A stretch of 40,650 nucleotides of DNA from a virus. The notes under the pieces are model-generated. The model did no database searches, was not told where the DNA came from, and worked only from the letters and a program-made list of their open reading frames with translations. Within the stretch, counting starts at the first letter, position 1. Every line of letters starts with the position of its first letter. The stretch is taken from IMG/VR virus record IMGVR_UViG_3300029305_001264; one strand, given 5' to 3'. Shown piece by piece: positions 3,342 through 40,650 of this stretch. The position numbers and the translations under genes are program-made.

Positions 3342-3345
3342 GAAA

Positions 3346-3378
3346 GACCCTCTCCGGTAACGGAGGGGGTCCTTTTTT
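3346..3378 (+). terminator. Rho-independent terminator
   Basis: 11-bp stem gaccctctccg/cggagggggtc with loop gtaa, followed by TTTTTT. Confidence 0.8.
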
Positions 3379-3523
3379 GCTATTTGGCATAAATATGGCA
3401 AGAATGTGGCGAAAAAGCGGCAAAATCACGGCCTTTAGACGGCAGTTTTGAACGGCTTTTTCATGTTACCTTGATGGTGGATCGGGGAACCCCCGGTACT
3501 AAATTAAAACGGAGGAAAAGAAA

Positions 3524-4042: not shown

Positions 4043-4384
4043 ATGGCAACCATTCAGCAGATCCAGAAAGCGGCGGCACGGTTTGTAGACCAGGATATTG
4101 CTCCGGCATTCTCCGGTGGTGAGCGGATTCTGGTATCCGGTGCGGCTGGCTTGCTTATAGCGAATTCCGGGAAACTGGTGGCGCAGTATGCTACGCATCC
4201 CATGGTGGCGGCACTTGGTGTTGTGGATGCACAAAGCGGCGATATCGATGTGGATTCCCTCTACCAGGCATTTGCTCCAAAATTTGGAAACGAAAAAATC
4301 CCGCTTAAGATCCCGGTGGTGGGCACCATCAGGATTGGGAAAGCGGAAGTCGATAGATTCTATCAATATGTAAAGGAGGCTTAA
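4043..4384 (+). CDS. Hypothetical protein (113 aa)
   Basis: AAGGAGG RBS. Coupled to the next ORF. Confidence 0.6.
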   Translation: MATIQQIQKAAARFVDQDIAPAFSGGERILVSGAAGLLIANSGKLVAQYATHPMVAALGVVDAQSGDIDVDSLYQAFAPKFGNEKIPLKIPVVGTIRIGKAEVDRFYQYVKEA

Positions 4385-4385
4385 T

Positions 4386-4811
4386 ATGGACGGGCGGATT
4401 ACGATTCCCAACATCGAAAAGGAAATGAAGCATCTCCAGGAAAAAGGCTGGATGTGCCGGGATGATCTTAAGATGCTGGTGCTTTTGGGTGAGGCCATGG
4501 AAGTCATGGGCAATGTTGACCGGGAATTCACAGAAGAGGATGCCCGGAAATGGGTAGAGCATATGGATCCCCCGGCACGGTGGTCGATGGAGCAGACCAC
4601 GGCGGTCATGCACCAGTTCGGATACAGCCATAGGCCCTGCGTATTCTATGCCGTAATGAACATGCTGTTCAGTGATTACGGACGGACTGTCATTCGTTTC
4701 AACATGGATAAGCCGGAATTTTGGGCTGCACTGGCTCATGACTTTATCGATGACCCGGATGCTGAGGATATGAAGGTGGGCCGGTACTGGCGGGATATAG
4801 TTAGGCACTAG
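4386..4811 (+). CDS. Hypothetical protein (141 aa)
   Basis: AAGGAGG RBS 2 nt after the upstream stop. Last gene before attP. Confidence 0.6.
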   Translation: MDGRITIPNIEKEMKHLQEKGWMCRDDLKMLVLLGEAMEVMGNVDREFTEEDARKWVEHMDPPARWSMEQTTAVMHQFGYSHRPCVFYAVMNMLFSDYGRTVIRFNMDKPEFWAALAHDFIDDPDAEDMKVGRYWRDIVRH

Positions 4812-22765: not shown

Positions 22766-23085
22766 TCGAAGTTACCTACTGGAAGGATAGGCACCGGGTA
22801 AGAATCACCGGTCACGCGCACTCCGGGGAGGAAGGAAAGGATCTGGTATGCGCCGGGGCATCCACCCTGGCGGTGACGCTGGGGGCAAATGTCCGTTTCC
22901 TGAATGAGAAGGGCTATGCCAGGGATATCATCGTGGAGCTGGAGAAGGGAGATGCTCTGATCCAGTGCAGTCCCCTGCGGAAATACAGCCAGAGTGTGGG
23001 ACAGATCTTCCGCAGTGTTTGCGTGGGATTTGAGATGCTGGCGGCGCAGTATCCGGAGTATATTTCCTATGAAGTCCGGGGATAG
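22762..23085 (+). CDS. prp: Prp-family (ribosomal-processing) cysteine protease homologue
   Basis: 107 aa with the His/Cys dyad context ITGHAHSGEEGKDLVCAGAST, typical of Prp/YsxB proteins. Confidence 0.8.
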   Translation: MIEVTYWKDRHRVRITGHAHSGEEGKDLVCAGASTLAVTLGANVRFLNEKGYARDIIVELEKGDALIQCSPLRKYSQSVGQIFRSVCVGFEMLAAQYPEYISYEVRG

Positions 23086-23112: not shown

Positions 23113-23175
23113 ATCTCCAGAACATGGGACTCGCCGCCCCTGTACCAAGCGGCAGATTAAATGTTCGGAGGCATA

Positions 23176-24219
23176 ATGATGCAAAATGATGTATGGTTCC
23201 TGCTTCAGCTCTTTGGCGGTGAGGGTGCCGGTGGCTCCGGCGGCTCTGCCGGCGGTGAGGGAGGCGGAACCGATTCGGGCGAAAACGCTGCCGCCGCCGG
23301 GCAGCAGAGACTGCGGGAACTGGGGGTCCCGGAGGATCGGATCAGAAAAAACCGGGCGTACCGGATGGGTCAGCAGCAGACGAGCCGCAAAGCCGGCGGC
23401 GAGGAGCAGCAGACCGGTCAGGAGCAGGCCGCCGCTGCAAAGAATGAGGATACCCCCACAGAGGAAGAAGGCAAGACGGCAGCCCAGGCTCCTCAGCGGA
23501 TGACCTGGGAGCAGATCATGGCAGACCCGGAATACAACAAGGCCATGCAGGCCACCATGCAGCAGCGGCTGAAAGCCAGCAAGGGCAACGAGGAAGCGAT
23601 GCAGAAGCTTGCTCCCGCCCTGGAGATGCTGATGGCAAAGCACGGTCTGGACCCGGCAAAGCCTGACTATGCCGCCCTGGCAGCCAAGATCATGGATGAT
23701 GACACTCTTTATGAGGACAAGGCCATTGAACTGAATGTGGACACGGATGTTGCGAAAAAGCTGACCCAGCAGGACATGGAGCTGAAGCGCCTGAAGCGGC
23801 AGGAGACCATGACTATGGAGCAGCAGCGCATTCAGCAGCACTTCGCGAAGCTGGAAGAGCAGGGACAGGCCATGAAGCAGCAGTTTCCTGGCTTTGATCT
23901 GAGAAAGGAGCTGCAGAATCCCGTATTTTCCCGGATGGTCAGCCCGGACAGCGGACTGACGGTGGAGGATGCTTACTACGCTGTTCATCGCAAGGACATC
24001 CAGAATGCCCAGGCTCAGGTGATAGCGAGCGGGGTAGCTAACCAGATGTCCAATGCTATTAAGGCGAACTCCATGCGGCCCAATGAATCCGGCGCAGGAA
24101 AGGCCCCCTCTGTGACGCACTTTGATTACAGAAAGGCAAGCAAGGCAGAGCGCAACGATCTGAAAAAGCGCATCCGCTCCGCTGCCGCAAGGGGAGAGAA
24201 AATCTATCCCGGCCAGTAA
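23176..24219 (+). CDS. Scaffolding protein
   Basis: GGAGG RBS. Acidic, Gln/Glu/Lys-rich helical protein between prp and the capsid gene. N-terminal LLQLF-GG motif. Confidence 0.7.
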   Translation: MMQNDVWFLLQLFGGEGAGGSGGSAGGEGGGTDSGENAAAAGQQRLRELGVPEDRIRKNRAYRMGQQQTSRKAGGEEQQTGQEQAAAAKNEDTPTEEEGKTAAQAPQRMTWEQIMADPEYNKAMQATMQQRLKASKGNEEAMQKLAPALEMLMAKHGLDPAKPDYAALAAKIMDDDTLYEDKAIELNVDTDVAKKLTQQDMELKRLKRQETMTMEQQRIQQHFAKLEEQGQAMKQQFPGFDLRKELQNPVFSRMVSPDSGLTVEDAYYAVHRKDIQNAQAQVIASGVANQMSNAIKANSMRPNESGAGKAPSVTHFDYRKASKAERNDLKKRIRSAAARGEKIYPGQ

Positions 24220-24267
24220 GGCCGAGACTCTCCCCCCAAATACAGTATTTTGAGGAGGAGAAAAAAT

Positions 24268-25347
24268 ATGTTTCTGTTTGATTTTATCCAGCTGTTTGCG
24301 GATGCCGGTACCCTGGTGAACGCCACCGGCGGCTATGTTAACTCCGGCACCGGTGCCGTGACCAATTTCAGTACCGGCTATACCCTGGCACCTGAGCTGA
24401 AGACCTTCTATGATACCGAGCTTCTGGAGAATGCCCGGGTAGAGATGTTTTACGCGCAGTTCGCCAAGAAGCAGCCCCTGCCCGCCAACAACGGTACCAC
24501 CGTGGAATGGCGCAAGTGGAACACCTTCGCTCCTGCCAGTCAGCTGCAGGAAGGTGTGATCCCCACCGGCCAGAGGTTCGGTGTAAGCACCAAGACCGGC
24601 TCCATTAACCAGTACGGTACCTACACCACCGTCTCTGACAAGCTGGAAATGCGGGCTTACGACGATGTGATCCTGGGCGCTACCGAGGAAATGGGCGCTT
24701 CCGCAGCTGAGACCCAGGAGAAGCTGATCCGGGACGCTCTGCTGGTGAACACCAATGTTATGTACTGCGATAACATCACCCTGGCTACCGGCGCTGTTGC
24801 CGGCACCCCCACTACCCCCGCAACGATGGAAGCCAGTACCACGGTGATGAGCATGATGACCCCTGCCATGGTTGCCAAGGCCGTGACCAAGCTGAAGAAG
24901 GACCGGGTGCCCACCATCAACGGCAAGTACTACGCTGTGATCCATCCCAGCGTTGCCGAGGATCTGCGCAAGAGCGATGGCTGGATGGAGGCCCACAAGT
25001 ACGCAGCCCCCGAGGAGATCTTCAACGGTGAGATCGGTGAGCTCCACGGCTGCCGGTTTATCGAAAATGTGTTTGCTCCCGTGCTGGGCAGCAGCTATGC
25101 CAACAAGGCCACCACCGTTACCTATGCCACCTACTTCTTCGGCAAGGACGGCTTCGGCATCATCGACCCCGAGGGCGGCGCTCTGGAGATGATCGTCCAC
25201 GACAAGAGCGAGATCGGCGGCCCTCTGAACCAGTTCAGCACCATCGGCTACAAGTTTGAGACCAACGGCGCTACCATCCTCTACACCGAGCGTGTGCTGA
25301 GAGTGATGAGCTGCTCTTCCTACTCCGCTACCGATGTGGCGAACTGA
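24268..25347 (+). CDS. Major capsid protein (HK97-fold type, 359 aa)
   Basis: ATG 24268 lies 8 nt after GAGGAGGAG, whereas the track start at 24250 is TTG. Follows the scaffold gene. N-terminal MFLFDFIQLF-ADAG propeptide-like motif. Confidence 0.8.
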   Translation: MFLFDFIQLFADAGTLVNATGGYVNSGTGAVTNFSTGYTLAPELKTFYDTELLENARVEMFYAQFAKKQPLPANNGTTVEWRKWNTFAPASQLQEGVIPTGQRFGVSTKTGSINQYGTYTTVSDKLEMRAYDDVILGATEEMGASAAETQEKLIRDALLVNTNVMYCDNITLATGAVAGTPTTPATMEASTTVMSMMTPAMVAKAVTKLKKDRVPTINGKYYAVIHPSVAEDLRKSDGWMEAHKYAAPEEIFNGEIGELHGCRFIENVFAPVLGSSYANKATTVTYATYFFGKDGFGIIDPEGGALEMIVHDKSEIGGPLNQFSTIGYKFETNGATILYTERVLRVMSCSSYSATDVAN

Positions 25348-26083: not shown

Positions 26084-27826
26084 ATGAGAATGCCTATGAT
26101 CCCGGAGCAGGCCATCAGCAGGGATATGATCGATACCTTCCGGGGGTACAACCACAACCCAAAGATCAATCCCAACGAATTTTACAACATGGAAAATATG
26201 ACCTCCGACTTCTACCCGCTGCTTGCGCCCAGGAGAAGACGGGGGCTTTGGAAAGAAGTGCCGGGTATTACCGGCATGATCGCAAAGGAAAAACTCTGCT
26301 ACACCCAGGGCAGTGACTTTGTGATGGGCGATGCGCGGTATGATCTGGGGCTGAACGATCAGCGGAAAGATCTTATCAGCATGGGCGCTTTCGTGATCAT
26401 CATGCCGGATAAGAAGTACATCAACACGGTGCAGCCGGAGGAGCGGGGTGATATCGAAAACCAGGTGGTGACCCAGGGGGATGTGCAGTTTCAGCTGAGC
26501 ACCATTGAGGGCGAAATATACGAAGGGGCTACGGTATCGGACACGGCTCCCGGCAGCCCGCAGAACGGCGCTCTGTGGATCGATACCAGCAGCTCCCCTC
26601 ACAGCCTGAAGAAATACAGTGAGGCTTCCTCCACATGGGTGAGCATTGCCAGCACCTATGTGCGCATCAGCTCCACCGGCATTGGAAGCGGCTTTGAACG
26701 GTATGACGGAGTTCAGATCAGCGGCATCGTCAGCGACAAGCTAAAAGATCTGAACGGTACGCTGACCATATGGGACAAGGGGGATGACTACCTGGTGCTG
26801 ATGGGCATCATCGATGAAGCGGTGACCCAGGAAGCAGCGGAGGGCAGCATCACCATTCAGCGGCGGATGCCGGAAATGGATTTTATCATCGAAAGCGAAA
26901 ACCGGCTGTGGGGCTGCCGCTACGGTACCAACCGGCACGGCGAGATTGTAAATGAGATCTACTGCTGCAAGCTTGGTGACTTCAAAAACTGGGAGTGCTT
27001 TATGGGACTCTCCACAGACAGCTACATGGCAAGCTGCGGCACCACGGGTCCCTTTACCGGGGCGGTGGCACACATGGGATACCCGCTGTTTTTCAAGGAA
27101 GACTGCTTCCATAAGGTGTTTGGAAGTATTCCGGCAAACTTCCAGATCCAGACAACGGCCTGCCGGGGTGTGCAGAAGGGCAGCCACAGAAGCATGGCGG
27201 TGGTCAACGAGGTGCTGTACTACAAAAGCGGCGCAGCGGTATGCGCCTACGATGGAAGCCTGCCGGCGGAGATCAGCTATTGCCTGGGCAATGAGCGGTA
27301 TTCCGGTGCTGTAGGCGGCGGTCACGGCAACAAATACTACATCAGCATGGCAGACCTGGACGGGCAGTACCACCTCTTCGTGTGGGACACGGCCAAAAAG
27401 CTGTGGCACCGGGAGGATAACTTTCAGGCAGACGGTTTCTGCGCTTTCGGCGGGGATCTGTTCGGCCTGGAGCACGGCACCGGCAGGGTGCTGCAGATGA
27501 CCCGGGGCGATGGCAGCGGAGAAGAGAAATGCGAATGGTTTGTGGAGACCGGTGAAATCGGACTGGAACTGCCGGACATGAAGTACATCAGCAGGCTGCT
27601 GGTGAGAGCCAGTCTGGATGTCGGCACAGAGATGCGGATCTTTGCCAGGTATGATTTTTCCGAGGAGTGGGAGCCGCTGTTCGCTCTGAGAAGCGCACAG
27701 CTGAAAAGCTACGAGGTGCCCATAAGGCCCAAGCGGTGCGACTACATGAAGCTGCGCATTGAGGGAGACGGCCCGGGCAAAATCTATTCCATTACCAAAT
27801 CACTGATGAAAGGAAGCGGAAGATGA
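26084..27826 (+). CDS. Large virion structural protein, putative tail knob/nozzle (580 aa)
   Basis: Assigned by position and size. Beta-rich, repeat-like segments. No motif recognised. Confidence 0.4.
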   Translation: MRMPMIPEQAISRDMIDTFRGYNHNPKINPNEFYNMENMTSDFYPLLAPRRRRGLWKEVPGITGMIAKEKLCYTQGSDFVMGDARYDLGLNDQRKDLISMGAFVIIMPDKKYINTVQPEERGDIENQVVTQGDVQFQLSTIEGEIYEGATVSDTAPGSPQNGALWIDTSSSPHSLKKYSEASSTWVSIASTYVRISSTGIGSGFERYDGVQISGIVSDKLKDLNGTLTIWDKGDDYLVLMGIIDEAVTQEAAEGSITIQRRMPEMDFIIESENRLWGCRYGTNRHGEIVNEIYCCKLGDFKNWECFMGLSTDSYMASCGTTGPFTGAVAHMGYPLFFKEDCFHKVFGSIPANFQIQTTACRGVQKGSHRSMAVVNEVLYYKSGAAVCAYDGSLPAEISYCLGNERYSGAVGGGHGNKYYISMADLDGQYHLFVWDTAKKLWHREDNFQADGFCAFGGDLFGLEHGTGRVLQMTRGDGSGEEKCEWFVETGEIGLELPDMKYISRLLVRASLDVGTEMRIFARYDFSEEWEPLFALRSAQLKSYEVPIRPKRCDYMKLRIEGDGPGKIYSITKSLMKGSGR

Positions 27827-27967: not shown

Positions 27968-28873
27968 ATGGCAAACAAAGACCTTGATATGGAAAAGGAC
28001 GCGCTGCCGAAGGAGACCGGAACGGAGACGGAGAGCATGGGGGAGGCCGCTGTAAGGCTTCCCGGATACCAGAGCCAGTACACCGGACAGATCCAGGATC
28101 TGTACCAGAGTATCAGCCAGAGAGAGCCCTTCCAGTGGGACATGAACAGCGATGCCATGTATGAGGCGCTGAAGAAACAGTACATTTCCGGCGGCCAGAT
28201 GGCCATGATGGATACCATGGGTCAGGCGGCTACCCTCACCGGCGGCTACGGAAACTCCTATGCCCAGGGTGCCGGACAGCAGGCATACCAGCAGTATCTG
28301 CAGGGGCTGAATGACCAGATGCCGGATCTCTACCAGATGGCCCTGGAGAACTATATGGCCCAGGGTGATCAGATGCTCCAGAACTACAGCATGCTGATGG
28401 ATATGGATAACATGGAATACGGCAGATACATGGACAATATGGATATGATCCAGGCTCAGGTGCTGGAGATGCTGCGGGCAGGCCACAGACCCAGCCAGGA
28501 CATGATCGCGGCATCCGGTTTGAGCCAGGAGTATATCGATGCCATGTATCCGGAAAAGAGCGTCAGCAGCGGACCGGGCCTTGTGGAGAGCTGGTATAAC
28601 TGGCTGGCTAAGACTGCGCCGAAAGACCCCGTCACCGAACCCCTCACCGAACCCGTAACACTTCCAAAACCCAACAGAAGCAATTACGCTAACTGGGGTG
28701 CGGGTGAATGGAATGCGTATTTTGCGGAAATTGCAAACTCTGAATCCAGGGAAGCCGCCGAGGATGAATACATAGAACTGAACAGTTATGGCATTATTCC
28801 TGATGTTTACAAGTCCGCAGCCGCAAGGGGTACAATGGGATCTCTGGGAAGCTACGGCTCCAGAAGGGGGTGA
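27968..28873 (+). CDS. Met/Gln/Tyr-rich virion protein, possible internal protein (301 aa)
   Basis: GAAGGAGG RBS. Low-complexity QQAYQQYLQ...MLMDMDNMEYGRYMDNMDM. Confidence 0.5.
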   Translation: MANKDLDMEKDALPKETGTETESMGEAAVRLPGYQSQYTGQIQDLYQSISQREPFQWDMNSDAMYEALKKQYISGGQMAMMDTMGQAATLTGGYGNSYAQGAGQQAYQQYLQGLNDQMPDLYQMALENYMAQGDQMLQNYSMLMDMDNMEYGRYMDNMDMIQAQVLEMLRAGHRPSQDMIAASGLSQEYIDAMYPEKSVSSGPGLVESWYNWLAKTAPKDPVTEPLTEPVTLPKPNRSNYANWGAGEWNAYFAEIANSESREAAEDEYIELNSYGIIPDVYKSAAARGTMGSLGSYGSRRG

Positions 28874-28877
28874 TTAG

Positions 28878-31800
28878 GTGGCTTTTTCCGTTAGCGATGC
28901 GCTTTCTGAGAGAAAAGACCGGAAAGCGGCACAGAGCGGCCAGAACAGTTCTGGGAACATGGGCGCAAATAATGCTGGCCAAAGCAGACAGACCATCACG
29001 GGCAGTTTCAGTGTGTCGGATGCGCTCCGGAACAGGCAGAACCGAAATGGGAATCAGGGCAGCAATGTATCTGATCCCACCAGTATCATCGATCGCTACA
29101 ACTCTTTGGTAGGACAGTATAATGACAGCATTGGCGGCGGGCCCAGCTTCGGTGTAAGTGCGGATGATGTTCTTGGCTCCCAGCGGGACATGAGAGCGGA
29201 ATCCGCAGCCATTTACAACGAGCTGGATTCCTACAGAGCATATCTGGGAGACGATGTTGTCGATGATATGCTGTCTTCCCTTGAGGGCATGGTGAGCGGC
29301 TGGAACGATATCGTTTCCAAAGCAAAATACTATTCCCAGTGGGAAAGCCCGGAAGACTATGAGCACTTTACATATCTGAGCGGAATGGACCTGGCGGCGC
29401 AGACGCAGGCTATTGAGGATCAGGAGGCGGCGATCGCTGACCTTAAAAAGGCACGGCCCGGAGGGATCCTGGGCATGGCGCTGCATGGGGCGGGGTACTA
29501 CTCCACGGACGATTACCTGGCGGCGAATGATGATATCCAGGCGGCGGAGGACCAGCTGGCTCAGATGCGGCAGGACCTCTACGATGCTACCCTGCTCCAG
29601 CAGGGACAGCAGGAAAGCGCCTGGGAGAAGCAGTACAGCGGCATGAGCTATGACCAGCTGATGCCCATCATCCAGGGCATGGAGGAAGGTGCGGAGCGGG
29701 ACTGGCTGGAGGGCTATGCGCCCAGCACCATGACTGCCCAGGATATGACGGAAAAACAGGCGGAGAACAATACCGAGATCTACTACCTGGATCAGTTTGA
29801 AAAGGAATGGGAAGCCATTCTGGAGCGGGAATTCATGCTGCAAAACAGCGGGGAATGGACCAAGGCACAGCAGGACCAGATCGATGCGGAAAAGGAAGCG
29901 CTGCTGCAGAGATACGGTGTGGATTCCCTGGAGGCTGCACAGAGCCGCAGAGAGACCCTGATGGCTGAAAACTGGGAGCTGGATAACCGGGCTGCCTATG
30001 ACGCAATCCCGGAAGCGGAAGGCTTCCAGGCCAACAGCGGGGTGCCTGAGGGATACACCACGGGTACCGGCAGCGCAGTGAGCCTCTTTGACTACATCAA
30101 CGATATCGAAGGTGCCAGAGAGCGGGAGACTCTGCGGATGGCCGGACACGGCGAATCGCCCTATGCCATCTATGACTTTATGGACGATCAGCAGATCGGC
30201 ATATTCAACTACCTCTACAATGTCCAGGGCATGGATGCGGCGGAGGATTACCTGCAGTACATCCAGTATGACCTGAATGCCAAACGGAACCAGAGCATCG
30301 CCGCAGGGGCGCAGACCATTGCCCAGGAAGCGGGCGCAGCGGCATCGCTCTTCTCTATCCCGGCGATGATGATGAGCGGTCTGGGGATCCTGGATGTGGG
30401 AATGCAGCACCTGGGACGGGCGGTGAGCGGCGGATATGCGCCCATCGACTATAACCGGGGCGCTATGGCCTACAATACCATCGGCAGTACCATCCGGCAG
30501 ACCAGAGCCCAGCACTACAACGAGAAGGGCACCATCAACCTGAACGAAAACGAGCATCCTATTCTGGCGAGGCTCCTGAACGGCAGAGGCTGGGGCGATG
30601 TATACCAGCTGGGTATGAGCCTGGCGGACAGCTATCTGGTGGGCAATATCGGCAAGGTGACGGGTCTGGGCGGCAAAGCAACGCTGCTCCTCAGCGGAAG
30701 CGCAGCTACCCAGGGTGTGCTGGATGCGGTGGAGAGCGGTGCCAGTGATGAGCAGGCGCTGCTTATCGGTATCCTGAACGGCGCGGCAGAATACCTCTTT
30801 GAAAAATATGAACTGGATAATCTGCTGGGTCAGGACACCAGCTATCTGAAGGCCATCGCCAATCAGGCGCTGACGGAAGGCTTCGGCGAAGGCATGACTT
30901 CTGTGTCCAACGCACTGGTGGACTACCTGGTGATGGCGGAAAACAGCGGCCTGGAGCAGAAAGCCCGGGAATATATGCTGATGGGCTACAGCGAAAGCGA
31001 AGCCATGACCCAGGCTCTGCTGGACATCGCTGCGGATATCGGCTGGGATGTGATCGGCGGTATGGTCAGCGGTGCTGCCATGAGCGGCGGCTTCCAGGCT
31101 ACCCAGGCGGTGCTGACTCCGGCAGATGTTCGCTCCAACAGCAAGCGGCTGCGGGAGCTGGGCATGAGCCGGTTTGATGCGGACCAAAAAGCGGCGGAGC
31201 TGTATGACCTGGCCCAGGGCTATGGAGATGCTGCCGGGAACTTCCAGCGCAACTATGCTCCGGGGCAGGACACCGGGGAATATGCCCTGGAATTCCGGAC
31301 GGCCTACGAAATGGGCAAGGCGGGTGCTGACCGGCAGCGGCTGGGAAGCGACAGTTTCCGGGTGATGAGCCAGAGCCAGAGGGATATCGCCTATGACACC
31401 GGTGTGGAAGCCCGGAAGAAGGCTGCGGGCCGGGAAAAGACGGAGGTAAAAGCCACTCTGGAGGTGAGCGAAGACCAGAAAACCGTGCGAACCGACACCG
31501 GCAAGGAAGTGAAGATCGATGGTTTCGCATCCGTGGGCGATAAGGCTACTCTGAAAGTGGGCAGCGACACGGTGAAGATGACCGATGTGAGCTATGCCAG
31601 TGCGGAAGAAGCGGCGATGTATGAGACCGTGGCAACGGTGGCCGGGTCTGCATCCACAGCCAATGCCATGCTGGAGCAGCAGCGAAAGAGCGATGTTTCC
31701 CCCGTGGATTTTGCCAACGGACTCTGGGAAGCCTATGAGGCGGGCAGAATCGGCAGTGCGACCCGGGCGGAGCTTGGGCAGATGGAATTTGCCGGGAAGC

Positions 31801-34800
31801 TGCCGCTGGCGGTGCGGAACATCGCTTACAGCCGGGGCATTGACAGGGGCAGATATCAGGCCAATGCGGCGGAAGCAGTGCTGAAAGCCAAGGGCAAGCA
31901 GAACAAGGGCCAGCGGAAAGAAGGAAAGCTGCATTTCGACCGGAAGGGCAGGACCTTCAGCGATATTCAGGAGACCGGTCTGGCGGCGATGGAGAGCTTC
32001 AGCAAGGCGCTGGGCATCCAGGTGTATGTTTATGAGTCCTTCGTGAAAAACGGGGAGCGGGTCTATAAGAACGGCAATGGAGAGACCGTAAAGGCTCCCA
32101 ACGGCTTCTACGATCCGGAGACCGGAGCAATACACATCGACCTGAATGCCGGCAACTTCGGTCAGGGCACCATGCTGTTTACCCTGGCGCATGAGCTGAC
32201 CCACTACATCAAGCAGTGGAGCCCGGTGCGGTTCCGGGTGCTGACGGAAGCGGTCCTGAGAGCCTACAGCACCAAGGGCCAGAGCGTGAATGCGCTGGTG
32301 GAAAAGCAGATGGCAAAGGCCAAAGAGAGCGGCCGGAATCTGACACCGGAGCAGGCACTGGAAGAAGTAGTGGCGGACAGCATGGAGGCCATGCTGGTGG
32401 ACGGCAGCTTCGGAAAGGTGCTGGCGGACATCAAGGCCCGGGACAAAACGCTGTGGCAGAAGATCAAAGACTGGTTACTTGAAATTGCGGATAAGCTGAA
32501 AAAGGCTGCCGATGCATACCGGGGCATGAAACCTGACAGCGTGGAAGGCCGGATGGTCCGGGAGATGGATGGAGTCTTTGATGAGATCCAGAAGCTGTTT
32601 GCCGAGGGTCTGGTGGAGGCCAGTGAGAATTTTGCGGCTGCGGAAGGGCAAAAAAATACCACCCAGGAGGGTGGGGTGAAGTATTCGGACAAATATCTTG
32701 CCGCAGAAGTTGATCCCAATGTACTCAACATGGTCACGCAGGTCACATCTGGAAACTATTCCGACAACGATAAAGTTGAGCTTGGAAAAGTACCGGATGA
32801 TATCGCTGCGAAAATCAAAGAGATTACTGGTGTAGATCCTTCTGGTTTTCGTATTGTCATTGAGGCGAGGCAGATGCTTCATATCCTAAATGGCCATGGG
32901 TCAAACGGGGATGCTAACCGCTCGATGAAAGATCCGAATGATATTGCCAGGATCAAATATGTTATTTTTACTCCAGATGACATTCGTGGACCAGGCATGA
33001 CCAGAGCATATACGCATCAGCGAAAGGGAAAAGCAAGGCCTGCCCCCACCGTATTGTACGAAAAAAACATAGGCGAGAAATCGTACTATGTTGTGCAGGC
33101 CGTTCCTGACACAAAAGCAAAAACAGTATACATCGTTTCTGCTTTTATTGGCCCAAGTGGATACAAAAAAGAAGCCTCACAGCTCATCAATGCCTCAAAT
33201 GGCCCTGATGCAACGGCTAAACCCGGTTCTGTGGTGGCTTCTAAGAACAGTATACGAAAAGCTGAAGCAATTGTCAACCCCAAATCTGTGGAAGCCATGG
33301 ATCTGGAAGTAGACGAGAAGACGGAATCGGTAGCACCTACCGTTATGATGTCGGAGCGGACCTGGACGCAGTCTGAGTATGTGCAGGAGCGGGATATGGC
33401 TGCGCTGGCCATCAGCAAGGCAATCGGTGTAAGCATTCAGAAGGCAAAGGACTACATCGACAGCGTGAACAGCATCGCCAAGATGATCGCCGATGACCGG
33501 ACCAGGCTTGACTACTTCTCCAGTCCCGGAAGAAGCAGTTTTATCGGTAATGTGGAATACGGCGGCAGCTTTGATTTCTCTACACTTTGCAAGAAGCGGC
33601 GGCTGCTGACGGGCACCTTTACCGCTATCCAGAAAGCACTTCCCAATACGGCGCTGACGGCCAATGAGATCCTGGAGATCCGCAAGCGGATGCAGGATGC
33701 CGGTCTGGAGGTAAGCTGCGGGCTGTGCTATGTAGAAGGCAGCAGAGCCAATATGGGACAGTTTGCCAAGGAATTTCTGCGGCTGTACAAGCAGTATTAC
33801 CCGGATGGATGGCAGCCCAATATGGCGGATGTGAACACTCCCGAGGGAATCGAGTGGGTGCGGATCAATCACCCGGAGGTCTATGAACAGTATGAATACT
33901 TCTGGAACCACTACGGTACCCTGAAGCCCGGTGACAAGAATCTGTTTGCCAGCCAACAGAAGCCCAAGCTCTACCAGCTGCACACGGAGTACAAGGGGGA
34001 GATCCTCCAGAAATTCCGGAACGATGACAATGTGGAGGAGAAAAACATCAACGGCGGCATCCGGCTGCAGAGTTTCTCCGACTTTGAAATCGTGCATCTG
34101 ATCGACACCATGCAGATCATTATGGATATGAGCCTGGTTGGGCTTGCCGGTCAGGCATACACAAAGGTGCCGGACTTCGCATGGGCGCTGGGCGATACCG
34201 GCCTGAAGATCAATCTGAGCCTGATCGCAAAAGGTGTGGACGAAAATGGAAACCTTATCTTTGACGATGTGGAAGGTATGCCCATTCAGGAGGCCATGCG
34301 GCTGCGGGAGCGGTATTCGGAGAATGTTGGTACGATCCTGGTAGCCTTCAATGATGCACAGCTGAAAGCGGCGATGGCTGACCCCAGAGTGGACTTCATC
34401 ATCCCCTTCCACAGAAGCCAGTGGAAAAAGAGTCAGTATGAGGCTATGGGCCTGCCGAAGAATACCAAGGACTACACCTACATGCAGAACGAAAAGTACA
34501 TCAAGCCCCAGTACCATGAGTACAGAGGCAGGATGGTACGGGATAAGGCCACCAACTACATGCCCAACGAATACTGGGACTTCAGCAAGAGCGGAACGGA
34601 AAATGCCAGGGCTTATCTGGAAATGTGCGCCAGGAACAATAAGCGGCCCAAGTTCTACAAGCTTCTGACGGACAACAAGGACGGAAGCTACTCCCTGAAG
34701 GAAGACGGAAGCACGGACGGCTATTGGAAGCTGCTGATCGATTTCAAGATGTATGACAATCAGGGCAATGGCAGTCCCCAGCGGCCGGTGACTCCGGAAT

Positions 34801-37800
34801 TCAATATGGAAGAAGCCAACCGGATGCTGAACGATTACCGGGGCGGCCACAGCAGTTTCCCGGTGGCACAGGGCATTGCTGATCAGTTTGTAGCGGAGTA
34901 CAAAGAGAGCCACAAGGGAAAGGTGCTTTCCGAGCGGGATACCATGGTGGCGGAGCTGGAGCGGCAGAATGCGGCGCTGCAGGAGGATGTGGAGGAGCTG
35001 AAAAAGCTTCTGGCGCTGCAGGGTCAGGTGACCGGCGGGCGTATCCCGAAGAAGAGCAGTGTGGAGGCGGCGGCAAAATGGCTGAAGGGCTATGCCGGTG
35101 CTACCATGGATGCCGATGACATGAAAGAGCTTGCCGGGATGCTGACGGAGTTTTACGGAGCGATCCTGAACGATGAGGAGCTGGCATGGGAATCTGTTAT
35201 GGAAAAGGCAGCGCCTATTGCCGACTTTATCCAGGCCAGGGTGAATGTGAAGCCTCAGATGAGCGAATATTCAAAAGATGTGCTGCGGGAGCTGAGAGGT
35301 CGGAAGATCAAGCTTTCTGACAGCCAGAAGGCGGAGGCGGCCAGAGCATACGGCAGCTACAATGAATACCGGAAGGCGGCTTTTGGCAGTGTGACACTTT
35401 CCAATGAGGGAATCCCTCTGGACAGCTTGTGGCAGGAGATGGCAAGCATCTTCCCCGGAACATTTGACGAAAATGTGACGGCGGGAGATCAGCCGGCGGC
35501 ACTGCTTGAGGTGATCCAGGGACTGCGGAGCACGGACCAGGCGGCCATGGAATATGAATACAACCGGGAGTTCATTCGGGCTGACCTGATCCGGGCAGTC
35601 TATGACAGTTTCTGGCGGGTGGATACCCTGAAGACCGTGGCAGACAAAAACCAGAAGAAGGTAAACGAGCTCAAAGCAAAGCACCGTCAGCAAATGGATA
35701 CGCTTCGGCAGGAGAAGAATAAGGCCATCCAGCGGGTGAAGAAGCAGTGGGCTGATGACATCGAAAAAGTGCGGCGGGAGATGCGCCAGGAGATCCGTGA
35801 CCGGGTGACCGCGACAGAAAAGCGGTACCAGGAATCCAGAGCCAAAGCGACTGAACAGCGGCGAACCACCGCCGGGAAGAAGCGGGTACGGAAGCTGGTG
35901 GCTGAGATCCGGAGCCTCTACGAACACGGCACGAAAGAGCGCAATGTCAAGAAGGGCATGCGGGACTTTGTGGAGCATGCGCTGGCGGCGGCAGAGGTCC
36001 TCTTTATGGACAATTACACGGACGAGGACATCGTCATGGCCGGTGTGAGCGTTAAGCTGGAGGACAGCCAGCGGCGGCTTCTGGATCGCACGCAGGAACT
36101 GATCCGGAAGCGGGATGATGTTTTCAAGGGCGGAAAAGATGTGCAGACTGCGGAAGCGGTGATCGCCGGTGATACGGCGGAACTGGATGCGCTGCAGGAG
36201 CGCTACGATGCGCTGCAGGAGCAGATAAACAAGAATCTGCGGCTGCTGGGACGGGTGCTGCGGGCAGAGCGGGCACGGCTTAATGAGACCACCATCACGG
36301 CGGTGCTGGAAGGTCTGGCGGAAGCTTACAAGCAGCTGGGAAGATCTGATGACAACTTTATCCGCAACGGAACCTATGAAACGGTCTACCAGGGACTGAT
36401 GCAGCTGATCGAGGATGTGCGTGGTACCACGGTAAAGGACATGACCAGCGACCAGCTGGAGGCGGTGGAGCGGGCATTCAAGGAGGTGCTGCACACGATC
36501 CGTGCGGCAAACAAGGCTTTCGTCCAGGGCAAGAAAGAGACCATTGCGGAGCTGGGTGAGGCTGCTGTGCGGGAAGTGAAGGCCGTGGGCGGTTTCCATG
36601 AGGACCGGAACACGGCGCTGGACCCGGTGAGAAGATTCTGGTGGAACAATCTGAAGCCCGTATACGCCATGAAGCGCATCGGTTCCAAGGTGCTGACGGA
36701 TGCCTACAACGCGATCCGGCGGGGTGAGGATACCTGGGCACGGGATATCGATGAGGCCAGGAGATTCTTCCAGGCGGCGGCAGACCGGTACGGCTATGAC
36801 CAGTGGGACCAGGAAAAGGGCTATGTGTTCAAAACTCCCAACGGACAGGAATTCACCCTGACCCTGGGCCAGATGATGAGCATCTATGCCTACTCCAAGC
36901 GGCAGAATGCCAAAGATCATCTGCGGATCGGCGGTATCGTATTTGACCCCAATCAGGAGGTATACCGGGACAATGCCAACGGCAAGCGGCGCAAGCGCTC
37001 CCTGAACGATGCGACCGCATACCAGATCGGTGAAGGCACGGTGGCTGCCATCCTGGAGCAGATGACGAAGGAGCAGATCGCTTTTGTAGACGAGATGCAG
37101 AAGTATCTCTCCGAGACCATGGGCGCCAAGGGCAACGAGGTCAGCAATGTGCTTTACGGTGTTGACCTCTTTGGGGAAGAAAATTACTTCCCGATGAAAT
37201 CGGCCCGACAGTATCTCTTTGAACAGAATCAGCCTGCGGGTGAGGTCAGTTTGAAGAACAGCGGTTTCACCAAGGCCATTCAGCCGGGAGCAAACAATCC
37301 CCTGATCCTGGGAAGCTTCATGGATGTGTGGAGCCAGCATGTGAACCGGATGAGCACTTACCACGGATTCGCACTGCCCATCGAGGACTTTAACCGGATC
37401 TTCAACTACCAGACCGGGCGGAATGAGGAAAAAGCTTCCGTTTCCGTAAAGGCAGCGATCCAGGGCGCATACTCCCCTGCCGCGATCCAGTACATCAGCC
37501 GGATGCTGACGGATATCAACGGCGGAGCCAGGACGGACCCGGCTGCCGGTGTGATCGGAAAGATGATGAGTCTTTTCAAGAAGGGCGCTGTTTTTGCAAG
37601 CCTTTCCGTGGCGATCCAGCAGCCCAGTGCCATCGGCAGAGCGGCGGCGCTCATCGACCCGAAATGGTTCAGCGGCAAGAAGGTGACCAAGCAGAACATC
37701 GAACAGGTCTGGGAGGAGTGCAAGGAATACGCTCCGGTCGCTCTGATCAAGGAGATGGGTTTCTTTGACACCAGTGTGGGCAAGTCCACCCAGGACTACA

Positions 37801-39902
37801 TCACGGCCCGGAATTACAAGGGCCTAAAAAACATCGTCAAGGGATTCTTTACAGATGCCAGCTACCGGGACGAGCAGATGGGTATGCTGCCGGCGCTTCT
37901 CGACAATATCACCTGGGCCAATATCTGGCAGGCGGTAAAAAGGGAGCAGCTGGATAAACATCCGGATGCGGACCCCGCAAGCGAGGAATTTCTGAAGCGG
38001 TGCGGTGAGCGGTTTACCGAGATCGTGACGGAGACCCAGGTATATGACAGTGTGCTGAGCCGGAGCGCCAATATGCGAAGCAAGGACACCGGCATGCAGA
38101 TGCTGACCGCATTTATGGCGGAACCGACCACCAGCATGAATATGCTCTCCAACGCAGTGGTCCAGGCCAGACGGGGAGACAAAAAAACGGCTGGCCGGGC
38201 GGTGGGCGCTGTTGTGGCGGCGCAGATCATCAACAGCATCCTGGTATCGCTGGTGTATGCGGCCCGGGATGACGATGAGGAGCAGAGCTATGCCGAAAAG
38301 TATCTGGAGGCCCTGGCGAACAATATATGGAACGATGTTTTCCTGATGGTACCGAATTCCATTCCCTTTATCAGCGATATTATGAGCATGCTCCAGGGCT
38401 ATGATGTGGAGCGCAGCGATATGGCGGTGATCTCCGACATGATCAATGCCATCCAGCAGCTGAGCAATGAGAAGAAGAAACCCTGGCAGAAGGTGGAGCT
38501 CTTTGTCGGGTCCCTGGCGCAGATTTTCGGCCTGCCGGTGAAGAACATTCTCCGGGATGTAAAGGCTATCTACAATGTGGCGGACGGTATGCTCTTCGGT
38601 GAGCGGTCCACGGCGGCGGGATTTGGATATGCTGTGAGAGAAGGCATCACCGGTGATGCGGTGAGCAATGCCCAGCAGCTGTACGATGCCCGGGTGAACG
38701 GGGACAAAGCCCACGAAGCCAGAGTGACGGCCCGGTACGAAAACCAGGAGAGTGCGGATGCGGCTGTTCGGAATGTGATCAAGAGAATGTTTATGGCGGG
38801 AGAGATCGACCGGGTGGAGGCTCAGCGGCAGCTGATGCTGTATGCAGGCTATGACAATGCGGTGGAGATCTATTGGCTGGTGGATGCATGGGTTTACGAA
38901 AAGGATACCGGAAGCTCTGACGGCTACGGAAAATACAATGACATCTACGCAGCTATGTTGGCCGGTGAAAGCATCGATGCGCTGATGACCGAATTTACGG
39001 ACCTTGGGTACCGGGAAGACGATGTGCTCAGCCAGATGAAAAAGGAAGTCGGCCGGTGGTATTATGACGATGAATCGGAGACCAGGATCGGCAGAGACCA
39101 GGCGGTGGATATGCTGGGACAGTATTTCGGCATGGATGAGGACGAGATCGCCGAGCAGATGCGCTCCTGGGATATGCGGATGGAGACCGGATTCAGCTAC
39201 TCTGAACTGAAGGGCGAATACATGGAGGGCAATGTATCCCGGGAGGAGGCCCTGCGGCTGCTCCAGGAATACGGCCTGCTCCACAGCACGGAGGCGGAAG
39301 ACCGGGTGGCTGACTGGGACTTTGAAGCGGAGCACGGATTCGGCTATGACGATATCCGGCATACCTATCAGGACGGCGAGATCACGGCGGCGGAGGCCAT
39401 CGATGTGATGATGGGTTTCGGCGGGAAAGACCGGGAGGATGCGGAGTATGCGATCCGGCTCTGGGATTTTGAGACCAAGAACGGATGGGCATATGAGAGC
39501 AGAGTATCGCTCTATAAGCAGGGCCGTATCTCCGGAGATGTGCTGCAGAAGGCTCTGATCGAATTCGGCGGGTATACCCCGGAGGATGCACGGACCCAGG
39601 TCGAGGTATATGACTGGGAGATGGAGGGCATCAAGAATGTGACCATCACCCGGGTGGAGCGGTACCATGAGTTTGCGGAGCCTGCGGGCATCAGCAAGGC
39701 GGTATACATGGATGTACAGCGGTACAGCGCTGACACCAAAAATGATGTGGATCCGGATACCGGCAAGTCCATCAACTACTCCGCTATGAAAAAGGTGATG
39801 GCATACATCGACAGCCTTCCCCTGACGGAAAAGCAGAAAGATGCTATGGCATACAGCCTGGGATGGAGCAAGAAAAACATCGAGAAGTACAAGCCCTGGT
39901 AA
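28878..39902 (+). CDS. Giant multidomain (polyvalent-type) virion protein, 3,674 aa: zincin HExxH metallopeptidase-like module, PBECR-like nuclease module, hydrophobic segments, coiled coils, C-terminal repeats
   Basis: 11,025-nt uninterrupted frame. GTG start 7 nt after AAGGGGG. HELTH at 32190-32204. The HILNGHG...YYVVQAV...VSAF pattern lies at about 32700-33170. Confidence 0.85.
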   Translation: MAFSVSDALSERKDRKAAQSGQNSSGNMGANNAGQSRQTITGSFSVSDALRNRQNRNGNQGSNVSDPTSIIDRYNSLVGQYNDSIGGGPSFGVSADDVLGSQRDMRAESAAIYNELDSYRAYLGDDVVDDMLSSLEGMVSGWNDIVSKAKYYSQWESPEDYEHFTYLSGMDLAAQTQAIEDQEAAIADLKKARPGGILGMALHGAGYYSTDDYLAANDDIQAAEDQLAQMRQDLYDATLLQQGQQESAWEKQYSGMSYDQLMPIIQGMEEGAERDWLEGYAPSTMTAQDMTEKQAENNTEIYYLDQFEKEWEAILEREFMLQNSGEWTKAQQDQIDAEKEALLQRYGVDSLEAAQSRRETLMAENWELDNRAAYDAIPEAEGFQANSGVPEGYTTGTGSAVSLFDYINDIEGARERETLRMAGHGESPYAIYDFMDDQQIGIFNYLYNVQGMDAAEDYLQYIQYDLNAKRNQSIAAGAQTIAQEAGAAASLFSIPAMMMSGLGILDVGMQHLGRAVSGGYAPIDYNRGAMAYNTIGSTIRQTRAQHYNEKGTINLNENEHPILARLLNGRGWGDVYQLGMSLADSYLVGNIGKVTGLGGKATLLLSGSAATQGVLDAVESGASDEQALLIGILNGAAEYLFEKYELDNLLGQDTSYLKAIANQALTEGFGEGMTSVSNALVDYLVMAENSGLEQKAREYMLMGYSESEAMTQALLDIAADIGWDVIGGMVSGAAMSGGFQATQAVLTPADVRSNSKRLRELGMSRFDADQKAAELYDLAQGYGDAAGNFQRNYAPGQDTGEYALEFRTAYEMGKAGADRQRLGSDSFRVMSQSQRDIAYDTGVEARKKAAGREKTEVKATLEVSEDQKTVRTDTGKEVKIDGFASVGDKATLKVGSDTVKMTDVSYASAEEAAMYETVATVAGSASTANAMLEQQRKSDVSPVDFANGLWEAYEAGRIGSATRAELGQMEFAGKLPLAVRNIAYSRGIDRGRYQANAAEAVLKAKGKQNKGQRKEGKLHFDRKGRTFSDIQETGLAAMESFSKALGIQVYVYESFVKNGERVYKNGNGETVKAPNGFYDPETGAIHIDLNAGNFGQGTMLFTLAHELTHYIKQWSPVRFRVLTEAVLRAYSTKGQSVNALVEKQMAKAKESGRNLTPEQALEEVVADSMEAMLVDGSFGKVLADIKARDKTLWQKIKDWLLEIADKLKKAADAYRGMKPDSVEGRMVREMDGVFDEIQKLFAEGLVEASENFAAAEGQKNTTQEGGVKYSDKYLAAEVDPNVLNMVTQVTSGNYSDNDKVELGKVPDDIAAKIKEITGVDPSGFRIVIEARQMLHILNGHGSNGDANRSMKDPNDIARIKYVIFTPDDIRGPGMTRAYTHQRKGKARPAPTVLYEKNIGEKSYYVVQAVPDTKAKTVYIVSAFIGPSGYKKEASQLINASNGPDATAKPGSVVASKNSIRKAEAIVNPKSVEAMDLEVDEKTESVAPTVMMSERTWTQSEYVQERDMAALAISKAIGVSIQKAKDYIDSVNSIAKMIADDRTRLDYFSSPGRSSFIGNVEYGGSFDFSTLCKKRRLLTGTFTAIQKALPNTALTANEILEIRKRMQDAGLEVSCGLCYVEGSRANMGQFAKEFLRLYKQYYPDGWQPNMADVNTPEGIEWVRINHPEVYEQYEYFWNHYGTLKPGDKNLFASQQKPKLYQLHTEYKGEILQKFRNDDNVEEKNINGGIRLQSFSDFEIVHLIDTMQIIMDMSLVGLAGQAYTKVPDFAWALGDTGLKINLSLIAKGVDENGNLIFDDVEGMPIQEAMRLRERYSENVGTILVAFNDAQLKAAMADPRVDFIIPFHRSQWKKSQYEAMGLPKNTKDYTYMQNEKYIKPQYHEYRGRMVRDKATNYMPNEYWDFSKSGTENARAYLEMCARNNKRPKFYKLLTDNKDGSYSLKEDGSTDGYWKLLIDFKMYDNQGNGSPQRPVTPEFNMEEANRMLNDYRGGHSSFPVAQGIADQFVAEYKESHKGKVLSERDTMVAELERQNAALQEDVEELKKLLALQGQVTGGRIPKKSSVEAAAKWLKGYAGATMDADDMKELAGMLTEFYGAILNDEELAWESVMEKAAPIADFIQARVNVKPQMSEYSKDVLRELRGRKIKLSDSQKAEAARAYGSYNEYRKAAFGSVTLSNEGIPLDSLWQEMASIFPGTFDENVTAGDQPAALLEVIQGLRSTDQAAMEYEYNREFIRADLIRAVYDSFWRVDTLKTVADKNQKKVNELKAKHRQQMDTLRQEKNKAIQRVKKQWADDIEKVRREMRQEIRDRVTATEKRYQESRAKATEQRRTTAGKKRVRKLVAEIRSLYEHGTKERNVKKGMRDFVEHALAAAEVLFMDNYTDEDIVMAGVSVKLEDSQRRLLDRTQELIRKRDDVFKGGKDVQTAEAVIAGDTAELDALQERYDALQEQINKNLRLLGRVLRAERARLNETTITAVLEGLAEAYKQLGRSDDNFIRNGTYETVYQGLMQLIEDVRGTTVKDMTSDQLEAVERAFKEVLHTIRAANKAFVQGKKETIAELGEAAVREVKAVGGFHEDRNTALDPVRRFWWNNLKPVYAMKRIGSKVLTDAYNAIRRGEDTWARDIDEARRFFQAAADRYGYDQWDQEKGYVFKTPNGQEFTLTLGQMMSIYAYSKRQNAKDHLRIGGIVFDPNQEVYRDNANGKRRKRSLNDATAYQIGEGTVAAILEQMTKEQIAFVDEMQKYLSETMGAKGNEVSNVLYGVDLFGEENYFPMKSARQYLFEQNQPAGEVSLKNSGFTKAIQPGANNPLILGSFMDVWSQHVNRMSTYHGFALPIEDFNRIFNYQTGRNEEKASVSVKAAIQGAYSPAAIQYISRMLTDINGGARTDPAAGVIGKMMSLFKKGAVFASLSVAIQQPSAIGRAAALIDPKWFSGKKVTKQNIEQVWEECKEYAPVALIKEMGFFDTSVGKSTQDYITARNYKGLKNIVKGFFTDASYRDEQMGMLPALLDNITWANIWQAVKREQLDKHPDADPASEEFLKRCGERFTEIVTETQVYDSVLSRSANMRSKDTGMQMLTAFMAEPTTSMNMLSNAVVQARRGDKKTAGRAVGAVVAAQIINSILVSLVYAARDDDEEQSYAEKYLEALANNIWNDVFLMVPNSIPFISDIMSMLQGYDVERSDMAVISDMINAIQQLSNEKKKPWQKVELFVGSLAQIFGLPVKNILRDVKAIYNVADGMLFGERSTAAGFGYAVREGITGDAVSNAQQLYDARVNGDKAHEARVTARYENQESADAAVRNVIKRMFMAGEIDRVEAQRQLMLYAGYDNAVEIYWLVDAWVYEKDTGSSDGYGKYNDIYAAMLAGESIDALMTEFTDLGYREDDVLSQMKKEVGRWYYDDESETRIGRDQAVDMLGQYFGMDEDEIAEQMRSWDMRMETGFSYSELKGEYMEGNVSREEALRLLQEYGLLHSTEAEDRVADWDFEAEHGFGYDDIRHTYQDGEITAAEAIDVMMGFGGKDREDAEYAIRLWDFETKNGWAYESRVSLYKQGRISGDVLQKALIEFGGYTPEDARTQVEVYDWEMEGIKNVTITRVERYHEFAEPAGISKAVYMDVQRYSADTKNDVDPDTGKSINYSAMKKVMAYIDSLPLTEKQKDAMAYSLGWSKKNIEKYKPW

Positions 39903-39982: not shown

Positions 39983-40650
39983 ATGAATTATGCGAGATCC
40001 AGGATATCCCTGAATGTGCAGGACACCAGCTCCCCCGTGGTGCTGGATGCCAAGCGGGGCGATACCAAGCGGGAGATCCTGATCGATTTAATGGACGGTG
40101 ATGAGCCTTATGTGATCCAAGAGGGCTGCTATGCTATCTTTACAGCGCAGAAGCCGGACGGAAACCGGATCTACAATGACTGCACCATCAATAATAACAT
40201 CATTCGGTATCGTTTTACTCCCCAGACCAGCAATGTGGTTGGCACGCTGAAGTGCGAGATCAAGCTGTATGACCAGAACGATGAGATGATCACATCGCCC
40301 CGGTTCGGCATCCTGGTGGAGCAGCCGGTATTTTATGACGGCGATATCCCGGAAAGCGACTATGAATTCAATGCCATTACGGATATCGTCAAGGACACGG
40401 CGCAGGAATACCTGGAAGAGAATCCCGTTCTTGTGGATAACACTCTGAGCGTACCGAATATGGCTGCGGAAGCGGCTGCCACGGGCGCAGCGATCAACGA
40501 AGCCAAAGGTATCGCGGAGAATTCGCTGCCCAGAAGCGGCGGCGTAATGACCGGTGCCATGACGGTGCAGGAACCCACGGAGGATGCGAACCCTGCCACC
40601 AAGGGGTATGTGGACGGTAAGGCTGAGGAATTGCGGTACAGCCCGATCGT
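39983..40650 (+). CDS. Tail fibre / receptor-binding protein, 5-prime part (BppU-N-like N-terminus; continues at base 128 of the window)
   Basis: AAAGGAG RBS and ATG 39983, with no stop before the window end. The N-terminal [29 protein letters not shown]...RFGILVE resembles the baseplate upper protein N-domain. Confidence 0.75.
40524..40650 (+). repeat. 127-nt terminal duplicate of bases 1-127 (circular-closure overlap)
   Basis: Base-for-base identity on direct comparison. Confidence 0.97.

Follow-up and report, generated by a model that had tools for sequence, protein, structure and literature searches.

In phage T7, the genes for the portal, scaffold, capsid, adaptor, nozzle, internal core proteins and fibre follow one another in that order, and the internal core proteins gp14, gp15 and gp16 are helical polypeptides with membrane-active segments, of which gp16 also has an enzyme domain. 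Coliphage N4 packages in its podovirus head, and injects, a virion RNA polymerase (vRNAP) of 3,500 amino acids (aa) that is fused to a zincin-like module (PMC5512222). The same study (Iyer, Burroughs, Anand, de Souza and Aravind 2017) described phage-type polyvalent proteins, which are predicted to be virion-carried cocktails of early-acting weapons and are defined by the mosaic make-up of their orthologues, between which domains are swapped; enzymes that are made late and have their targets in the cytoplasm, it was argued, make sense only as cargo for the next cell (PMC5512222). In the Shiga toxin (Stx) phage phi24B, the 2,811-aa protein gp47 was found in virions by mass spectrometry, is unseen in cryo-electron microscopy and has been proposed to be a capsid-packaged ejection protein (bioRxiv 10.64898/2026.04.10.717836). 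Very few giant polyvalent proteins have been examined experimentally. Here we describe a giant protein encoded by a single open reading frame (ORF) in the IMG/VR virus record IMGVR_UViG_3300029305_001264, the whole analysed stretch of which (40,650 nucleotides) is referred to as the window. Sequence comparisons identify it as a phage-type polyvalent protein, and thus as a member of an already published class; its conserved scaffold holds interchangeable enzyme cassettes. One of these cassettes, which we call A1, is the one new element of the protein, a large enzyme-like domain that is both widespread and unannotated.

The giant ORF (28878..39902, plus strand) has a GTG start and encodes a protein of 3,674 aa with a mass of 410.7 kDa and an isoelectric point of 5.1. 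The GTG is the first codon past an in-frame TAG, lies 4 nucleotides (nt) from the stop codon of the upstream gene and is preceded at a distance of ~7 nt by a Shine-Dalgarno-like run, GAAGGGGG; the coordinates are exactly those of the uninterrupted 11,025-nt frame with a GTG start and a good ribosome-binding site that the initial annotation had proposed. Because the window ends (1-127 and 40524-40650) are identical over 127 bp, we interpret the window as a circularly assembled contig with a true genome size of 40,523 bp, of which the ORF occupies 27.2%, in line with the 27 percent claimed earlier; 127 is a common largest k-mer in assembly. From the base composition of the window, stops are expected at ~4% of random codons, so a frame of 3,674 open codons cannot be ascribed to chance (~1e-68 by our own estimate). 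An orthologue from an unrelated ENA assembly (P0041, 3,653 aa, on a 43.6-kb contig) aligns with the protein from end to end at 90% identity, its start is likewise encoded by GTG (VAFSV…), and the gene order of its locus (L083) matches. In a codon-level comparison of the two genes, the ratio of nonsynonymous to synonymous substitutions (dN/dS) was 0-0.44 in each 150-aa window. Using the C-terminal module of the protein, we also retrieved 80 related loci, 78 from GTDB genomes and 2 from IMG/VR, which originate from human and ruminant gut metagenome-assembled genomes (MAGs) of Clostridia (Oscillospiraceae, Acutalibacteraceae, Faecousia and Ruminococcaceae); in 54/54 complete relatives, the module is part of a single stop-to-stop frame of 2,464-4,053 aa. 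That the long frame might be an assembly chimera, a possibility raised at the outset, or else a non-coding open frame is refuted by the full-length orthologue from another sample, by dN/dS values far under 1 throughout and by the giant frames of all complete relatives, and its probability is negligible. The ORF thus specifies one real protein that is under purifying selection over its whole length. Minus-strand ORFs of 572-1,136 aa also lie within the gene (28794-32204, 33195-34913, 35271-37364 and 37824-39668), and are read as shadow ORFs since dN/dS favours the plus frame and the region is strongly purine-skewed.

The protein matches phrog_22978, an unannotated family of PHROGs v4, at aa 1935-3279 (E = 0, 1,093 bits) and again at aa 434-753; the profile comprises 3,513 positions, and both the PBECR3 domain and A1 fall outside its coverage. 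Searches of NCBIfam, and of the PDB with sequences and profiles, yielded nothing significant. BLAST comparison with the IMG/VR giants detected conservation at aa 455-758, 2025-2365 and 2493-3290 only, and the centre of these proteins (L003 and L004) contains ART-PolyVal with LPD3, or PBECR5, in place of PBECR3 and A1. The same division emerged from a census by iterative jackhmmer over the 54 complete giants, the counts of which are listed in Table 1. Based on these comparisons, the conserved scaffold consists of the hydrophobic region, the zincin-like module, the coiled coil and an 800-aa helical C-terminal module (C-module), and the central part holds interchangeable enzyme cassettes, which in this phage are an RNase-like PBECR3 domain and A1. 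Relative to the 90% orthologue, the PBECR3 segment is the most divergent part of the protein, with an identity of 59-68% and a dS of ~0.8 that point to a swapped allele; A1 is 99-100% identical (dN ~0, dS ~0.2). In another protein, P0082, A1 is 84% identical and its flanks are 36-38% identical, which likewise indicates cassette exchange. The presence of PBECR3 above its cutoff, and of ART-PolyVal, LPD3 and PBECR5 at the same central position in relatives, bears out the earlier proposal of a polyvalent multi-domain protein.

A1 corresponds to the ~500-aa globular region that the initial annotation could place in no known family, and it proved to be a discrete conserved domain. Besides its four cysteines (Table 1), its conserved polar residues reside in the motifs GG.R.QSFSDFE, YTK, KINLS and D..IPFHRS. 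No Pfam, PHROG or NCBIfam family matched it. An exhaustive profile search found A1 in 2,515 representative protein clusters, 2,016 of them at E ≤ 1e-30; among the best 150 matches listed, nearly all lie within proteins of 2,000-4,600 aa and one lies within a protein of 7,763 aa. The latter (P0178, with A1 at aa ~4138-4708) is twice the size of the other A1-bearing proteins. Homologues of aa 1480-2059 co-occur with PBECR3, MuF_C, LPD3 and ART-PolyVal, and the C-module of the present lineage is found in ~80/147 of the A1-bearing giants. A1 always comes after an HExxH module. Thirteen sampled A1 giants that lack the C-module have an invariant HExxH…E motif directly upstream of A1 and carry ART-PolyVal (6), LPD38 (3), PBECR5, ddrB-ParB or PBECR3, in further support of a polyvalent protein. 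A setting of a different kind was seen at L001:10001-12268 (ENA ERZ13617116, a 44-kb contig), where most of A1 is fused to MuF_C in a stand-alone 755-aa protein whose gene lies among ordinary bacterial metabolic genes; the absence of phage genes within 10 kb suggests that A1 is also captured by host chromosomes.

To gain structural insight, A1 and the C-module were modeled with AlphaFold2 (AF2) and the models compared with known folds using Foldseek; this check, which had been recommended for the protein, yielded models of both regions and no significant PDB match for either. The A1 model (predicted local distance difference test score (pLDDT) 83.6, predicted template modelling score (pTM) 0.82) is built from alternating beta-alpha units and has a 160-residue helical insert. 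Its best PDB match has an E value of 0.5, the weak matches being to TIM-barrel and radical-SAM structures, and a search of BFVD returned one uncharacterised relative (E = 4e-21). The radical-SAM enzymes QueE and PFL-AE recurred among the weak fold matches at E = 0.8-2.4, which is not significant, and assignment to this family is further weakened by the cysteine pattern, C-x42-C-x2-C with a fourth cysteine at position 1917 in place of CxxxCxxC. The pattern of conserved residues fits a metal- or cluster-binding enzyme, and does not fit a canonical radical-SAM protein. The novelty of A1 is defined relative to Pfam, PHROG, NCBIfam and PDB; it might correspond to one of the LPD domains of PMC5512222, e.g. 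LPD28, which is said to associate with a metallopeptidase (MPTase) domain.

The second cassette had initially been recognised by its PBECR nuclease pattern at aa ~1275-1430. It scores 45.1-48.7 bits with Pfam PBECR3, the gathering cutoff of which is 30, and is predicted to be an RNase. H1335, H1340 and S/T1421 are conserved in only two close homologues, and they would map to catalytic positions.

The zincin-like module was recognised earlier as a polyvalent metallopeptidase by its HELTH motif. The motif itself is well founded: H1105, E1106, H1109 and E1163 are invariant in an alignment (A4) of homologues down to 22% identity, and HExxH is retained in 77/77 homologous segments. Assignment to the MPTase-PolyVal family did not stand, and the profile check proposed for both segments accordingly divides, with PBECR3 above its Pfam cutoff and the HExxH module below that of MPTase-PolyVal. 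We thus regard the HExxH…E motif evidence as strong and formal membership of the Pfam family as lacking. The module has weak matches to DUF6782 (E = 0.005-0.011) and to the ‘metallo-protease’ family phrog_87 (E = 0.0065), and its family profile retrieved no relative from the PDB. Since 12 MPTase clades have been described (PMC5512222), the module could plausibly belong to one that the Pfam model does not cover. The initial annotation had further counted on anti-defence enzymes; for the metallopeptidase this part is weaker than proposed, as the module belongs to the conserved scaffold in 48/54 giants and is not a variable effector, and its place in the conserved core makes polyprotein processing or cell-wall cleavage likelier than a variable anti-defence function. 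Among the A4 relatives, the end of the module (aa ~1254-1271, 32637-32690) occurs in two forms, one in which ‘D..TESVAP’ leads directly into A1 and another in which ‘(E)KNTT(Q/E)(E/D)GGVKYS’ is followed by a cassette insertion, PBECR3 in this phage. The latter sequence may mark the insertion or linker point of the cassettes. We also considered whether ‘D..TESVAP…SERTW’ might be a protease site that recurs along the chain, and rejected this, as each protein has exactly one copy, which represents the N-terminal edge of A1.

The remaining parts of the protein are largely helical or repetitive. Gly/Ala-rich hydrophobic stretches, a coiled coil past the globular region and four ~50-aa repeats of WD(F/M)E type had been described initially, and all three were recovered. 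Kyte-Doolittle peaks occur at aa 487-509 and 3105-3126, in Gly/Ala-rich or conserved regions; the second, a conserved membrane-like helix in the C-module (score 2.12), has basic residues beside it and an acidic cluster, DDDEE, after it. The coiled coil lies at aa ~2030-2640, where a simple measure of composition agrees with the helices of the AF2 models. The C-module has 235 homologues, none of which has a Pfam domain. Its AF2 model (pLDDT 75, pTM 0.72) consists mainly of helices and includes one small beta subdomain, and no PDB relative was detected by sequence, profile or fold (best Foldseek E value 0.05, template modelling (TM) score < 0.15). The clear repeat units begin at aa 3431, 3480, 3529 and 3578, a spacing of exactly 49 aa, and two weaker units lie upstream of them; GH-E and SHOCT-like matches to the repeats were below threshold and not significant. 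In the present phage, the duplicated N-terminal motif spans 28884-29027. Within their first 90 residues, 25/55 related giants contain a 10-mer duplication that outscored all 50 shuffles; N-termini of this kind include those of L006, L009, L020, L025, L033, L037, L053 and L072. The two copies are 13-45 residues apart, and the motif sequence varies among phages while the arrangement recurs, other examples being SFEEWSKKKK/SFEEWSLEKK and KYVNPHAGAK/KYINPHSGAE. Such a tandem motif could be a packaging or targeting signal.

Table 1. Regions of the giant protein, with their frequency among 54 complete giants, and selected genes of the window.
Feature	Residues (aa)	Coordinates	Strand	Census	Remarks
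N-terminal tandem motif FSVSDAL in N/Q/G/S-rich leader	motif 3-9, 44-50; leader 1-60	28878..29057	+	3/54	census refers to N-terminus of present type
Gly/Ala-rich conserved hydrophobic region	455-758	30240..31151	+	49/54	membrane-like helix aa 487-509 (Kyte-Doolittle)
Zincin-like module	~1040-1255	31995..32642	+	48/54	HELTH aa 1105-1109; putative third zinc ligand E1163
PBECR3 predicted RNase domain	1305-1426	32790..33155	+	2/54	Pfam PF18812, E = 1e-11 to 8e-13
Enzyme-like domain A1 (~530 aa)	~1490-2020	33345..34937	+	3/54	conserved C1571, C1614, C1617, C1917
Charged helical/coiled-coil region	~2025-2490	34950..36347	+	54/54	composition measure, AF2 helices
Conserved C-module, mostly helical	2493-3290	36354..38747	+	54/54	phrog_22978 core
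Six 49-aa C-terminal repeats	3297-3590	38766..39647	+	13/54	four clear WD(F/M)E units, two degenerate
Prp cysteine protease (PF04327)		22762-23085			between portal and scaffold genes
Probable scaffold		23161-24219			FxLQLF[AG] motif near its start (…FLLQLFG/GEG)
Capsid protein		24250-25347			FxLQLF[AG]-type motif near its start (…FIQLFA/DAG)
580-aa upstream neighbour		26084..27826	+		nozzle-like position; phrog_511 ‘internal virion protein’, E = 1e-57
301-aa upstream neighbour		27968..28873	+		Q/M/Y-rich; conserved position
Fibre/receptor-binding gene		39983..40650, across window end, finishing at 449	+		BppU_N domain
Endolysin		1873-2544			
Integrase (tyrosine)		5060-6133	-		scan of sizeable ORFs

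The gene is part of a late block that begins with the small and large terminase, a 155-aa protein, a portal of P22 type (PF16510, E = 8e-41), the Prp cysteine protease and the probable scaffold, continues with the major capsid protein, small proteins, a 125-aa protein, the 580-aa and 301-aa proteins and the giant, and ends with the BppU_N fibre, three small proteins and the endolysin. The FxLQLF[AG] motifs of the scaffold and capsid proteins resemble the Prp cleavage sites of Staphylococcus phage 80alpha. No Pfam, PHROGs or NCBIfam family matched the 301-aa protein. Among the 80 related loci, where neighbour counts are limited by flanks of 10 kb, the 301-aa homologue lies directly upstream of the giant in 47, a 580-aa homologue lies upstream in 38 and a fibre homologue lies downstream in 31; synteny at L083 is the same. 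The BppU_N domain of the downstream gene agrees with the claimed location of the giant between small virion genes and a fibre gene. Searches of all sizeable ORFs against PHROGs and Pfam identified no tail tube, sheath, tape measure or chaperone family, as had been noted initially, and with NCBIfam added neither the giant nor any other ORF matched a tape measure, a tube or a frameshifted chaperone pair. The presence of a tyrosine integrase indicates that the phage is temperate. The early region also encodes a 642-aa SbcC-like or recombinase-related protein (11460-13388; phrog_77, phrog_21084). Megablast and tblastn searches of the INPHARED phages revealed no cultured relative; the matches were one 4.8-kb faecal fragment (to the C-module) and unannotated faecal contigs (to the portal and the 580-aa protein), and Bacillus phage PK1, which among named phages has the most similar portal, is uninformative at 22% identity.

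From these data, we consider it moderately probable that this polyvalent protein, encoded by a temperate phage of gut Clostridia (Oscillospirales) whose tail is probably short, is carried in the head and ejected. We infer that it rides in the virion because its enzymes would be made late and have cytoplasmic targets, because its gene position is T7-like and because N4 and phi24B provide precedents; gene order, the hydrophobic helices and the analogy with N4 vRNAP and phi24B gp47 likewise suggest that it may be packaged in the head, be ejected and form a channel. In the proposed mechanism, the procapsid would incorporate a few copies, perhaps by means of their variable tandem motif at the N-terminus; these would be carried in the head and leave it before or together with the DNA. 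Passage across the thick cell envelope could then be aided by the hydrophobic helices and the coiled coil, the zincin-like module might cleave either the polyprotein, into working pieces, or the cell wall, and PBECR3 and A1 would target host RNA or defence systems in the cytoplasm as soon as infection begins.

Several observations weigh against this reading. Pfam scans of the giant found no MuF, DarA-N or vRNAP packaging module, and comparisons with the PDB by sequence and profile, together with Foldseek of the C-module and a comparison with gp47, detected no similarity to the ejection proteins of T7, P22 or phi24B; a match to the P22 Inj_translocase was not significant (E = 0.088). The zincin-like module scores 13.9 bits with MPTase-PolyVal (PF18818), for which the cutoff is 27.5, and 0/18 members of its family reach this threshold, 3/18 matching DUF6782 weakly. 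Podovirus morphology is deduced from gene content, and the ‘nozzle’ assignment of the 580-aa protein from its position and PHROG label. Processing of the giant by Prp was considered and rejected, as the FxLQLF[AG] motif is absent from it.

A different function in the particle is conceivable. Tape measures such as T5 pb2 carry lytic domains, and the giant could by this model be an external tail component, i.e. a tape-measure-like or central-fibre protein with attached enzymes, whose coiled coil and hydrophobic segments would set or fill a tail. It has the long coiled coil, Gly/Ala-rich hydrophobic stretches and metallopeptidase motif that such a protein might have, and its gene closely precedes that of the BppU_N fibre, a place occupied by the tape measure in siphoviruses. 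We nevertheless consider a tail protein unlikely, given that no tube, terminator, chaperone pair or tape-measure family was matched genome-wide, that the non-head structural genes number only about seven and that the portal is of P22 type; moreover, orthologues differ by ≤1,600 aa through the insertion of globular cassettes, which is a poor fit for a length ruler. Alternatively, the protein could be packaged as a structural internal core or scaffold whose enzymes act in assembly or in the producing cell and are not delivered. Its scaffold dominates the chain, the zincin-like module belongs to the core (48/54) and not to the variable part, and effector activity of the giant is a prediction. Set against this are the cassettes, which are swapped among close relatives and come from a pool of conflict domains (PBECR, ART, ddrB-ParB), and the extreme purifying selection on A1, which points to a working enzyme, so that a purely structural core has a low probability in our estimation. 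It is still harder to envisage a late cytoplasmic or secreted protein that never enters the virion, e.g. a superinfection-exclusion protein or a toxin polyprotein. The lack of a recognised packaging domain and the A1-MuF_C protein that stands alone in a bacterial chromosome would fit such a protein, which is nonetheless very improbable for a gene that takes up 27% of a size-limited genome and is tightly embedded (4-nt gap) in a structural block conserved over dozens of phages. The initial annotation of a head-carried, ejected protein appears largely right and is partly supported, its key functional step being a predicted one.

The giant represents a large uncultured lineage of temperate gut Oscillospirales phages, known from human and ruminant MAGs. 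As both the class and the idea of an ejection protein are already published, the ORF itself would not surprise a specialist. Its main value lies in A1, and its secondary value in the scaffold-and-cassette design of the lineage, which constitutes a natural catalogue of candidate injected effectors because a fixed scaffold carries exchangeable enzyme cassettes. A1 is a concrete lead, as it is widespread, strongly conserved, well predicted structurally and missing from the domain and structure libraries that were searched. Knowledge of its activity would allow thousands of phage proteins to be annotated and might uncover a new reaction in counter-defence or host takeover. More speculatively, A1 might represent a new family of phage-delivered enzymes that bind metal or iron-sulfur (Fe-S) clusters with an undescribed early or anti-defence chemistry, and the scaffold a single-chain counterpart of the podovirus ejectosome that is adapted to thick Gram-positive walls; we hold this view only tentatively.

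Comparison with the described systems places the giant closest to the polyvalent proteins. As in these, unrelated enzyme domains (PBECR and the HExxH module) are joined in one chain, the gene is located among virion genes and the orthologues are mosaic; the late location that typifies the class is evident from the flanking genes for the terminase, P22-type portal, Prp protease, capsid and BppU fibre. The giant differs from polyvalent proteins in that it has no MuF, DarA-N, vRNAP or LPD38 module, and in that its scaffold (the phrog_22978 C-module) and A1 have no Pfam model. It shares with phi24B gp47 that both are giant polyvalent proteins of temperate phages with an HExxH motif. The domains of gp47 are LPD5, LPD1 and LPD38, and its phage is a podovirus of a Gram-negative host. 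Homology between the two was rejected, as gp47 has no similarity to the scaffold, A1 or the C-module and aligns with 14.7 bits at HEIIH only; by sequence, gp47 is an analogue and not a homologue.

The giant resembles coliphage N4 vRNAP in its size and in its zincin-like module and, unlike that protein, contains no RNA polymerase domain detectable with Pfam, PHROG or NCBIfam; the predicted effectors of the two are also different. The likeness to T7 gp14-gp15-gp16 is one of position and general character, since the giant gene lies past the capsid and nozzle-like genes and before the fibre, and its product is helical with membrane-like segments. In contrast to the three T7 proteins, however, it forms one 411-kDa chain and is predicted to bear effectors directed at the cytoplasm.

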